This document shows positions 1 through 3,372 of a stretch of DNA of 31,819 nucleotides, piece after piece. How positions within the stretch are numbered: the stretch's first letter is position 1; each line of letters begins with the position of its first letter. Below the pieces are notes generated by a model, which saw nothing but the letters and a program-made list of their open reading frames with translations, made no database searches and was not told the origin of the DNA. This DNA comes from Octopus sinensis (Eukaryota): positions 1 to 31,819 of the forward strand of contig NW_021831723.1 of the NCBI RefSeq assembly GCF_006345805.1, read 5' to 3'. Made by a program: the position numbers and the translations under genes.

Positions 1-222
1 ATGTAATAAGTGTATATTATATATAATTACAAACAAGGATTTGTGAGATCAAATCACACAGGGAAATCATATTTAATTCCTATCTTTATATTTTATGTCA
101 ACACCAATATTTTGTTTAAATGCAAACAGATGTTCACCGTTCAATACTAAATTTAATATTTAATCAACGTTAATGATCATTATACTTATACTCTTAGAGA
201 TTTGATTTTTAATCCTTTTAAT
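1..222. repeat. Near-identical copy of intronic segment 2728-2950
   Basis: ATGTAATAAGTGTATATTATATA...GATTTGATTTTTAATC matches 2728-2941 with scattered substitutions. Confidence 0.92.
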
Positions 223-239
223 TTATAACAACGTTATTC

Positions 240-522
240 AGTGGTTTGTCGCAAGTTCCGCCTGACTGGTTCCCTGTGCTGGGGGAAAGTAAAAAGCACC
301 ATCCGAACGTGGTCAATGCCAGCCCCAACCTCAACTGGCTCCTGTGTCGGTGGCACGTAAAAAGCACCCACGACACTCTCGGAGTGGTTGGCGTTAGGAA
401 TGGCATACATATGTGGAAACCTTGCCAGATCACATTGGAGCCTGGCGTAGCCTACTGCCTTGCCTGTGAAATCGTCCGACCCATGCTACTATAAAAACGG
501 ACGTTAAACGATGATGATGATG
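240..522 (+). mobile_element. 5'-truncated RTE-type LINE 3' end (or RTE-tail SINE) with (GAT)n tail
   Basis: Homologous to the 3' UTR of the RTE copy at 17520-17742 (GGTGGCACGTAAAA..GGTTGGCGTTAGGAA..GGACGTTAAACGATGATGAT). Confidence 0.8.
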
Positions 523-775
523 AGTTCCGTGACCAAATGACAAAATTAACTCTATTGTGTCTTCTAATTTGAACATTATTACCAACAGTGCTATCCTCAA
601 TGGTTATTCCATAAACTTTCAATAATATCGATATCTTTAATAGAACTATTATACAGTTACTCTTTCAATCGTCAAGTCGGAATGTAACCTGTTTCCGGTT
701 ATTCTTTGAAGCACAATATGGCCAGGGGAAGTAAAACTTATAGAAATCAATTGGCAACTGTTATTTTATACTCAC

Positions 776-832
776 CAATTTCCTCAGACGCAACCTCTGT
801 TTGTACACACTTGTCTTCAGACTCTGGAGACT
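776..832 (-). CDS. Exon g, 57-nt symmetric exon (ESPESEDKCVQTEVASEEI), paralog of exon f
   Basis: Same acceptor and donor context as exon f; 21 nt shorter with frame preserved; phase 1-1. Confidence 0.8.
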
Positions 833-1007
833 CTGAAATAAATATTTCCAAGTTTTAGAATTAATAATAGAATTTCTTTATCGTTATTTTAAATAAACTC
901 TTTCTTGTTGTTGTGAGACATTCAATTCCTTTGAGTCAAGTAAAACCAAAAACCAGAAATCACAAATCAAAATCAAAACAAGATCGAAATCAAAATGGAA
1001 ATTGTAA

Positions 1008-1343
1008 TTATGGCCGATGCCAGTGCCGCCTGACTGGCACCCGTGCCGATGGCACGTAATAATTACCATTCAAGCGTGGTTTGTTACCAGTTCCGCCTGA
1101 CTGGTTCCCTGTGCAGGTGGCACGTAAAAAGCACCACCCAAATGTGGTCAATACCAGCTCCCACCTAAACTGGCTCCTGTGTCGGTGGCACGTAGAAAGC
1201 ACCCACCACACTCTCGGAGTGGTTGGCATTAGGAATGGCATACATATGTGGAAACCTTGCCAGATCACATTGGAGCCTGGCGCAGCCTACTGCCTTGCCA
1301 GTGAAATCGTCCGACCCATGCCACCATAAGAAACGGATGTTAA

Positions 1344-1377
<34 letters not shown>
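1008..1377 (+). mobile_element. Second copy of the same RTE 3' end with a longer (GAT)n tail
   Basis: Same sequence as 240-522 plus upstream CCAGT.CCGCCTGACTGG..GGCACGTAA subrepeats. Confidence 0.8.
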
Positions 1378-1628
1378 GTTCCATGACCAAATGACAAAAT
1401 TAACTCTATTGTGTCTTCTAATTTGAACATTATTACCAACAGCATTAACCTCAATGGGTATTTCATAAACTCACAGTAAATCGATATCTTTAATTCAATT
1501 ATTATACAGATAATCGTTCAATTGGAAAATAGGAATGGAAGCTGTTTTCAGTTATTCTTTCAAACACAATATACTCAGGGGATGAAAACCTTACAGAAAT
1601 CAATTGGGAACTATTATTTTATACTCAC

Positions 1629-1706
1629 CAATTGCCTGAGATGCAGCCCCTAATTCCTGACATGTAGCCTCTGTTTGTACCCACCTGTCCTCAAACTTTG
1701 GAGCCT
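1629..1706 (-). CDS. Exon f, 78-nt symmetric exon (EAPKFEDRWVQTEATCQELGAASQAI)
   Basis: TTTATTTCAG acceptor and GTGAGT donor; phase 1-1, open in the frame left by the RING exon. Confidence 0.85.
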
Positions 1707-3229
1707 CTGAAATAAATATTTCCAAGTTTTACATTTAATAATAAAATTTCTTCATCTTTATTTTTATTAAACTCTATCTTTTTATTGTGAGACATTCAAT
1801 TCCTGTCGTTACTGGTCAACCTTTGACCATTATGGTTTTGGTCAATATTTCTGTACTTTCTACAGTGGTCCCATGTAATAGCCCAATATGTCCACAATAA
1901 AACAGACTAACATTCCTAAGTCCACCCTCTCTCTCTCTCTAAGAACACATTAAATATTCTAACAATGTACCAATTATCTCATTTAATTAACACTTGATAA
2001 CAGTTTTCTCTTAGCTTTGTCTTTCTTTTCTTATAACTGCCAAATCTATGGCATGGCACTGTCCTCTCATCTCTAGAATTCACTAATCAACATTCCTCTC
2101 TAATTAAGTAAAACTGAGCCCATAAAGACATGTCCTTTATGTGCATACCCTCCACCCCGCACACAATCTGTCCCCTAAAAATCATCTCCACAAGCCAAAT
2201 TCCATACACCCTTCCCCAACATGATCCCTAACAAGGTGTAAAATGTAAGGTGAGGGTACACGATGTTCCTATGACAAAATAAGTTTACATTTCATACATA
2301 CAAATGTAAGAGAGTTAATGAATTATAGCTTATTAATTATCATGATAATTGGGTATATATGTGATACAATGGCACTGTGCTTGACGGTGCAATACTAGAT
2401 ATCAATATAGATTGTATATAATCTGAGTAAAGAACATATAACCTTCATTACAATGAATATGATTGTGTCTCAGCACAGCTAATATTATCGTAGTTCCATG
2501 AGCAAACGAAGAAAGATATAACCAAGTCCACTGCCAAATACTAATGATTAATTCATTTCCTGGTCAAATAACAATGACTATCTTTCATTAAAGAATTTGA
2601 ACGCAACAATCAAGACCAAAGGGTGAAACACTCAGAAAACTGTGCCTCTTTTAGCATTAATATCATCTAAAATCTAACAAGAGTGAGAAAAAGAATGACT
2701 ATATGGATGGTAAATGTTGTTCAAACAATGTAATAAGTGTATATTATATATAGTTACAAACAAGGATTTGTGAGATCAAGTCACACAGGGAACTCATATT
2801 TAATTCCTATCTTTATATCTTATGTCAACACCAATGTTTTGTTTAAATGCAAACAGATGTTCACCGTTCAATACTAAATTTAATATTTAATCAACGTTAA
2901 TGATCATTATACTTATAATCTTAGGGATTTGATTTTTAATCTTGTTAATTTCTCATAATTCAGGGTACGTACCTAAAGAGACATTCAGGGTACGTACCTA
3001 AACAACATATGCTGACAGACATCTTGAAGTGTGACATCTTAAAATTAGGTAAAGGCAATATTTAGTGGATATAGTGATAGATATACTGTCACAAAGAAAA
3101 GACCCCAGGAACACCTATCATAAATCTGTCCTATTATGAAGTACCTGGGTCTACACGAAAGCTTGAAGCACATTATTCCACACAATAAGGTCAACAAGAC
3201 AACAAACAGAACCCCAAAGATTGTCTTAC

Positions 3230-3372
3230 CAAATTCACTTTTGCTGAGGGTGTATTCTCGACACACGGGGCATCTCTTAAATGTCATTTCAGAAGAACAA
3301 TTCTCGCAGAGAACAAGATCTCCACATGGTTGCAGTCTCACGGTGGCCATGTTCTCATGACAGTAGCGACAT
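3230..3372 (-). CDS. Exon e: RING finger (CRYCHENMATVRLQPCGDLVLCENCSSEMTFKRCPVCREYTLSKSEF)
   Basis: C-x2-C-x11-C-x-D-x3-C-x2-C-x8-C-x2-C, MIB/IAP-type RING-HC spacing; TTCCATAG acceptor and GTAAGA donor; 143 nt, phase 2 to 1. Confidence 0.93.

Follow-up and report, generated by a model that had tools for sequence, protein, structure and literature searches.

Tandem cassette exons with a putative LC8-binding motif link the RING and the Death domain in an Octopus ankyrin-repeat family

Introduction

LC8 binds short linear motifs of about [DS]-K-x-[TVI]-Q-[TV]-[DE] that are set in disordered sequence, as given in the cited part of PMC3078936. A hydrophobic residue at +2, an aromatic residue at −2 and many like charges are rated as unfavourable for LC8 in the available portion of PMC6607443, and weak LC8 sites can act cooperatively according to the section of PMC12803091 used here. 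The same section describes KANK1, which has ankyrin repeats too and whose linker is turned into a rod by LC8 (PMC12803091). Multivalent LC8 linkers are a known kind.

Death domains oligomerise, and the PIDD plan combines a repeat sensor with a Death domain. Dscam-type exon arrays are spliced in a mutually exclusive manner, with one exon per mRNA. In human MIB1, the coiled coil together with RING3 alone gives the dimer and all of the activity, and the ANK-RING1-2 segment is mostly monomeric and inactive, its internal RINGs being without activity with UbcH5B (10.1101/2024.03.01.582834, cited part).

The window analysed here is the entire 31,819-nt contig G000:C8194 (NW_021831723.1) of Octopus sinensis, on which the gene under study is cut at both ends. 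A first-pass annotation had claimed two duplicated symmetric cassette exons, f and g, each encoding an LC8-type motif, and had placed them as a multivalent tail on a Mind bomb-like E3, with valency tunable by exon skipping.

Results

Anatomy of the cassette exons and their contig

Exons f and g were confirmed as duplicated symmetric phase 1-1 cassettes, held in a 730-bp duplication that includes both introns (Table 1). On the minus strand, AG precedes and GT follows each of them. Alignment of f with g placed the 21-nt length difference in a single gap just 3′ of the motif, so that the indel spares the motif, as had been proposed.

Table 1. Features of the window (positions on the 31,819-nt contig).
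Feature	Positions	Strand	Remarks
Copy of intron segment 2728-2951 (96%)	1-224	.	contig end
Duplication unit with exon g and flanking intron	241-930	.	copy of 1076-1804
Cassette exon g	832-776 (57 nt)	(-)	phase 1-1; fits the published LC8 consensus in full
Exon g motif codons −4 to +2	815-795	(-)	DKCVQTE
Duplication unit with exon f and flanking intron	1076-1804	.	83.6% identity to 241-930 over 730 columns
Cassette exon f	1706-1629 (78 nt)	(-)	phase 1-1; LC8-type motif, Arg at −3, private Trp at −2
Exon f motif codons −4 to +2	1689-1669	(-)	DRWVQTE
RING exon (zf-C3HC4_3)	3230-3372	(-)	phase 2-1; Mind bomb internal-type; joint 1706>3230
Last ankyrin-region exon	10925-11103	(-)	phase 0-2
Ankyrin-repeat exon	14599-14811	(-)	
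Short ankyrin-region exon	19521-19562	(-)	approximate ends, tblastn
Ankyrin-repeat exon, hypervariable codons among paralogues	30072-30251	(-)	approximate ends

Elsewhere, the intron segment that is copied at the contig end stands 1.0-1.2 kb ahead of a cassette. Since the contig end repeats the post-RING intron, a further cassette is likely to follow it, suggesting that the assembly broke inside a cassette array and that more cassettes lie beyond the window. The contig stops before the Death domain of the f/g gene, and in the closest paralogue, on C12424, the RING is followed by f, g and then a Death-domain exon. RefSeq model XP_029654570.2 (P0006, Octopus sinensis) contains the ankyrin exons, the RING, f and g, and ends by read-through of the exon g donor; the 5′ part of the match at 30072-30251 is intron that the gene model reads as coding.

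Two other features of the contig were noted. The intron between two ankyrin-region exons of the gene contains a 9.4-kb (ATC)n array of about 3150 units (20020-29441), and broken reading frames on the plus strand at about 15780-17310 resemble a reverse-transcriptase (LINE) fragment.

The Trp of exon f is private to this copy. Among 66 78-nt copies, residue −2 is Cys in 62, Arg in three and Trp in one, the window exon f itself. At position 1681, the Cys base was read in four sequencing-run assemblies, at 100% of the depth in three of them and at 97% in the fourth. This Trp could reflect either a change confined to the copy or a mistake in the assembly.

Splicing of the cassettes

Eight public runs were used, all of them contig assemblies whose RNA status is guessed or unknown and which carry no expression level. 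Among the joints listed, RING>f was present in four runs (X3, X6, X8 and X13), f>g (832>1629) in three (X3, X6 and X13) and f>f in three (X3, X6 and X8), and the rows joined at exact sites skip CT..AC on the plus strand. None of these three joints was among those listed for X1, X16 (the 2.2-Gb run), X17 and X19. More than 31 letters on the shorter side were found only in the X8 RING>f row (41) and in two f>f rows (51), the others having 20-29. Joints at 90-95% likeness may come from paralogues or sister species; because the joints are possibly paralogous, they show splicing of family members and not of the window copy itself. At this family level, the predicted junctions 3230>1706 and 1629>832 were both found, and f and g are spliced in. 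In addition, loose ends in X8 and X13, read by eye, run from exon g into letters like those of the first Death-domain exon.

The junction 3230>832, which the first-pass annotation had named as the mark of skipping of exon f, was absent from the joints listed for the eight runs. One X8 loose end at 833, read by eye, continues into RING-exon-like letters and may represent either exon skipping or a paralogue that lacks f. Cassette skipping is also suggested by RefSeq isoform sets in which a single locus yields one to four cassettes (P0027, P0030, P0028 and P0029); short reads from paralogues could give rise to such sets too.

Dead splice sites were observed in whole cassette classes (14 with an AA acceptor, 10 with an AT donor and 11 with a CT donor). 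Where a donor is read through, the resulting model terminates ahead of the Death domain (P0002, P0004 and P0016), and such models are possible decoy isoforms.

An ankyrin–RING–cassette–Death-domain family

Proteins from O. sinensis, O. vulgaris and O. bimaculoides share the architecture ankyrin–RING–(cassettes)n–Death domain, and the motif is present in all three species. The cassettes form an internal linker ahead of the Death domain, and the idea of a tail was abandoned. Family members end in the Death domain or in intron read-through, and some gene models are without the RING exon or without any cassette. The MIB/HERC2, ZZ and SH3-repeat domains were found in none of the 15 family members scanned, several of them full-length models; the window itself is without the 5′ end of its gene. 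MIB/HERC2-ZZ/SH3-like REP domains are present in Octopus MIB2 P0174. A Mind bomb-like E3 as the host was likewise not upheld, as the family ends in a Death domain, is without the N-terminal MIB domains and has only an internal-type RING. The best solved relatives of the Death domain are PIDD Death domains (PDB 2of5 and 9tuf, E 0.001).

The genome holds many copies of the individual exons. Exon f with its flanks gave 291 genome candidates, of which 40 were scored, and its 17-base acceptor context occurred 205 times (control, 0). The RING exon had 23 genome matches and one ankyrin exon had 116 candidates. A Death-domain query gave 113 matches among 150 scored, some of which are intronless stop-ridden copies or matches to exon 1. 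Among the named matches, no protein with a RING and a Death domain came from outside Octopus; 20 of the new matches in one search were named, and squid and cuttlefish may be poorly represented, so that the apparent restriction to Octopus is provisional. Open-access literature searches returned no paper on an Octopus ankyrin-RING-Death-domain family or on an array with one motif per exon. A large Octopus family, filed as 'MIB2-like', is thus apparently undescribed.

The first-pass annotation had asked for motif number to be compared across paralogues, and this number was found to vary. The sampled arrays contain 0-7 live cassettes and 0-6 live motif-bearing cassettes, both lower bounds from 10-kb partial windows, and 46 of the 85 arrays sampled in such windows are without a live motif cassette. 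Two or more motifs occur on one chain, as indicated by P0006, which has two, and by the f>g and f>f joints; the count per protein record reaches four. In one ankyrin exon, pN/pS was 1.03 (0.59-1.84) among 27 copies, and seven hypervariable codons each encode four or more residues, which is compatible with a variable sensor or with positive selection.

Family Death domains were also seen in other settings. On G000:C1, tandem intronless copies with several stops stand 2-4 kb apart at 41.73-41.76 Mb and 107.08-107.10 Mb and look like amplified retrocopies. Records P0155 and P0065 show the Death domain joined, in O. bimaculoides, to an LRR adhesion-type GPCR and, in an O. vulgaris model, to LRR sequence.

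A RING resembling the internal RINGs of Mind bomb

The type of the RING bears on whether LC8 would dimerise and activate it, making the protein an LC8-switched ubiquitin ligase. With a profile built from 23 family RINGs, the 28 internal RINGs of 17 Mind bomb-like proteins obtained scores of 20.9-65.2 and the 17 terminal ones scores of 7.9-26.3; the terminal RING ranked last in every one of the 17 proteins, five of which carry names. The family RING thus belongs to the type that is inactive in human MIB1 with UbcH5B, as reported in the cited part of 10.1101/2024.03.01.582834. Moreover, in the subfamily of the window RING, Asp takes the place of the His that serves as zinc ligand in relatives, and the RING exon or all cassettes are missing from some models. 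A ligase role would fit the short distance from the last RING cysteine to the first cassette, which begins about ten residues beyond it. It would also fit the RING cysteines, which are kept across the family, the pN/pS of the RING exon (0.68) and an Arg after the last Cys in the window copy, which is presumably the linchpin. Given the internal type of the RING and the Death-domain end of the protein, LC8 activation of a RING dimer is the weaker reading, and we consider it very unlikely.

Origin of the cassettes from a Death-domain exon

A DNA profile of the exon and its flanks gave 282 matches in 121 sequences, 1,160,915 bases near earlier matches and hence a non-random sample. Of these matches, 273 were parsed and nine were not; 258 of the 273 keep frame and 230 have AG/GT. 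The same profile finds both the cassettes and the 72-nt first exons of the Death domain, which account for 57 of the parsed units. Exon f and the best Death-domain exon 1 are identical in 48 of 78 columns, and the identity extends into the introns (36 of 45 bases upstream and 33 of 40 downstream). A midpoint-rooted tree built from 234 non-redundant units separates, with an SH-aLRT of 91, the 151 rows of motif cassettes from the Death-domain exons and from other, motif-less degenerate copies; support is weak at the deep nodes within the motif group. The motif was matched in 0 of 57 Death-domain exons and in 0 of 25 other degenerate copies.

These relationships indicate that the cassettes likely derive from the first Death-domain exon by repeated duplication, as judged from the sequence comparisons. 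We infer the direction, from Death-domain exon to cassette, from the Death domain being ancient and the cassettes being seen only in this family. Lys −3 is already present in Death-domain exons, and Gln 0 is found in 15 of the 57; Lys −3 is therefore inherited, and Val −1 and Thr +1 are new in the cassettes.

Such an origin raises the alternative that the cassettes are plain spacers, that is, degenerate copies of Death-domain exon 1 that set the distance from the RING to the Death domain, with an inherited look-alike of an LC8 motif. Two or three substitutions would turn some helix-1 sequences of the Death domain into the motif, Lys −3 and Gln 0 were in place beforehand as described, and gene models also splice in motif-less cassettes. 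What separates this explanation from a selected motif is the evolution of the motif codons, considered below.

Fit of the motif to LC8

Exon g fits the LC8 consensus in full, and exon f fits it with Arg at −3 but has the unfavourable Trp at −2. The rules in the available portion of PMC6607443 also count against Val at +2, which many classes have, and against three acidic residues within eight. The claim that the motif lies in disorder-like sequence agrees with the AlphaFold2 model of one relative, P0073 (35 aligned rows), in which linker residues 329-375 and 382-401 have pLDDT <50, used here as a proxy for disorder, and most of the Death domain has 80-90. A canonical-looking intronless LC8 gene is present in the genome. 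Overall, the cassettes of the K/R-x-V-Q-T lineage are likely to bind LC8, a prediction from motif and context.

The genome contains 22 matches to the dynein light chain family, several of them divergent and intact, and a specialised LC8 paralogue among the 22 could be the partner.

Selection on the motif

The published LC8 consensus with Arg allowed at −3 occurred 56 times in 2.32 million six-frame codons of family DNA. As 56 of the 273 parsed cassettes match this pattern (four of them strictly), the chance background is about zero.

To evaluate long-term constraint, in-frame rows were grouped on the tree by single linkage with a cut-off of 0.185, and the medoids of the resulting 16 classes were compared; exons f and g share a class, and classes 13 and 14 together make up a single subfamily. 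At −3, −1, 0 and +1, pN/pS was 0.21 (codon bootstrap 0.06-0.48), compared with 0.99 at the other nine codons; the bootstrap draws on four codons only, the classes lack independence, and the choice of motif pattern followed inspection of the data. For positions 1 and 2 of the motif codons, the mean pairwise difference among medoids was 0.19, against 0.38 for the remaining codons, 0.45 for third positions and 0.26-0.51 for intron blocks distant from splice sites. Synonymous variation is free inside the motif codons: at Val −1, the third position differs in 78% of pairs and the residue is identical in 76%. Furthermore, the motif is intact in 10 of 16 medoids, whereas neutral simulations that began with each intact medoid and followed intron-derived trees left on average 1.5 and 1.4 intact motifs, with 10 reached in 0 of 3600 runs each. 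In O. bimaculoides, as judged by eye, the motif is kept in three of four divergent cassettes of P0085 and in one of two of P0086, and P0084 has no full motif.

The picture within young arrays is different. The three largest young classes gave motif pN/pS values of 0.85, 0.94 and 1.77, i.e., no protection. A flank-only tree was made from 125 live rows, 26 of the 151 having been removed because of a lost frame, a stop or a dead splice site. On this tree, 21 changes fall on Gln 0 and 23 on Thr +1, which is more than in intron columns. The tree is biased in favour of intron columns, and exon counts are raised by gene conversion; the finding still counts against selection. The first class-level test, on 18 oversplit medoids, was not significant (p 0.10). 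The first-pass expectation that Val-Gln-Thr is conserved among paralogues therefore holds across the 16 classes and fails within young arrays; among the 78-nt copies, Val-Gln-Thr is kept in 52 of 66. Our reading of these sequence patterns is that long-term purifying selection acted on the motif across classes, with redundancy and local loss in young arrays.

The spacer explanation is in line with the young-class values near or above 1, with a frequent Gln-to-Lys change and with whole subfamilies that have largely lost the motif (intact in 6 of 31 cassettes of class 13 and in 5 of 16 of class 14). Against it stand the protected motif codons, the excess of intact motifs over the 1.5 expected, the free synonymous variation and the retention of the motif in O. 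bimaculoides, and we regard plain spacers as an unlikely account of the arrays.

Selection could also have acted for another strand-adding partner or for a lysine acceptor, and not for LC8. Conservation among medoids is strongest for Lys −3, Val −1 and Gln 0. The buried anchor residue of the LC8 motif, Thr +1, is weak, with an identity of 0.38, and is missing in six of the 16 medoids (present in only 10), and the +2 residue is often hydrophobic, with Val in 8 of 16, which matches tight LC8 binders less well. The conserved positions are nevertheless exactly −3, −1, 0 and +1 of the LC8 consensus, with Asp or Glu at −4 in 12 of 16 medoids (consensus from the cited part of PMC3078936), and the motifs lie in a disordered, repeated context in which weak sites can cooperate, according to the section of PMC12803091 used here. 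This makes another partner quite improbable in our assessment, more so than the spacers. We also considered TRAF, SUMO, caspase and ATM-site motifs and set them aside, since they disagree with the conserved positions. We know of no other motif that fits the conserved positions −3, −1, 0 and +1.

Discussion

Taken together, we consider it somewhat probable that f and g are spliced linker cassettes derived from a Death-domain exon, one lineage of which carries a K/R-x-V-Q-T motif that likely binds LC8, which would clamp two chains. The host protein would then likely be an LC8-clamped adaptor and not a ligase with a tail. LC8 would hold these chains in register and thereby take over from two parts of the Mind bomb parent, its terminal RING and the coiled coil that dimerises it; supplying the missing dimerisation stepwise to a Death-domain adaptor is, to us, the most economical reading. 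More intact motifs would give a longer and more stable dimer and easier clustering of Death domains for immune or cell-death signalling. Tuning might operate through copy number from gene to gene, on/off point variants and, probably, exon skipping.

A wider picture is offered only tentatively. Octopus may possess a large and rapidly diversifying family of intracellular sensor-adaptors, with variable ankyrins and a Death-domain output, that carry a modular dimerisation dial, in which a Death-domain helix exon became an LC8-binding exon and in which 0 to 6 or more rungs, provided by copy number, variants and skipping, set the signalling threshold. The motif, having arisen within a folded domain, would have taken the place of the lost coiled coil and been multiplied exon by exon.

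If this is true, the family would be a traceable case of a linear motif that arose from the exon of a folded domain and was spread by exon duplication. The on/off variants are natural ones, and the motif-less copies and the parent exon are built-in negative controls. The cassette series could be used to test how motif number and spacing affect LC8 cooperativity, which is an open question in the section of PMC12803091 used here. DYNLL1 is needed upstream of TAK1 in TLR4/IL-1 signalling, at a step that is not known (PMC8608018, cited part), and a Death-domain adaptor with LC8 sites would be a concrete candidate link between LC8 and TLR/IL-1 signalling in a mollusc.

Compared with MIB1 and MIB2, the Octopus family has the same succession of an ankyrin array and an internal zf-C3HC4_3 RING, and P0006 is 45% identical to Octopus MIB2 P0132 over 261 residues (other Octopus MIB2 records are P0134 and P0174). 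Unlike MIB1 and MIB2, it is without their MIB/HERC2, ZZ and SH3-repeat domains, has the cassette linker and a Death domain in place of the coiled coil and catalytic terminal RING, and is represented by more than 100 genome copies of single exons. Like PIDD1-type adaptors, it joins a repeat sensor to a PIDD-related Death domain, but the sensor is ankyrin and not LRR, ZU5 and UPA are absent and an internal RING is present. For proteins with a cIAP-type RING and a death fold, the Atlas match was under the naming bar (TM 0.35), and searching the Atlas by features yielded nothing usable.

In having tandem-duplicated paralogous symmetric exons, the locus resembles Dscam-type arrays. Unlike those of Dscam, the Octopus cassettes are joined consecutively (f>f and f>g) and occur together in protein records, so that they increase length and valency where a Dscam array would swap exons. 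A close likeness is to the KANK1 L2 linker, ASCIZ/ATMIN and Nup159, multivalent clients covered by the section of PMC12803091 used here. What the Octopus family has in common with them is a linker, predicted to be disordered and placed between folded domains, in which motifs of the K/R-x-[VT]-Q-T type recur. Such clients have a self-association domain close by, often a coiled coil; in the Octopus family, a Death domain follows the linker. In contrast to these multivalent clients, each Octopus motif has its own phase 1-1 exon, likely derived from the exon of a folded domain, the number of motifs ranges from 0 to at least 6 between paralogues with a spacing of 17-26 residues, and LC8 binding is predicted. 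A linear motif from a Death-domain exon, one per exon, is a new form of the multivalent LC8 linker.
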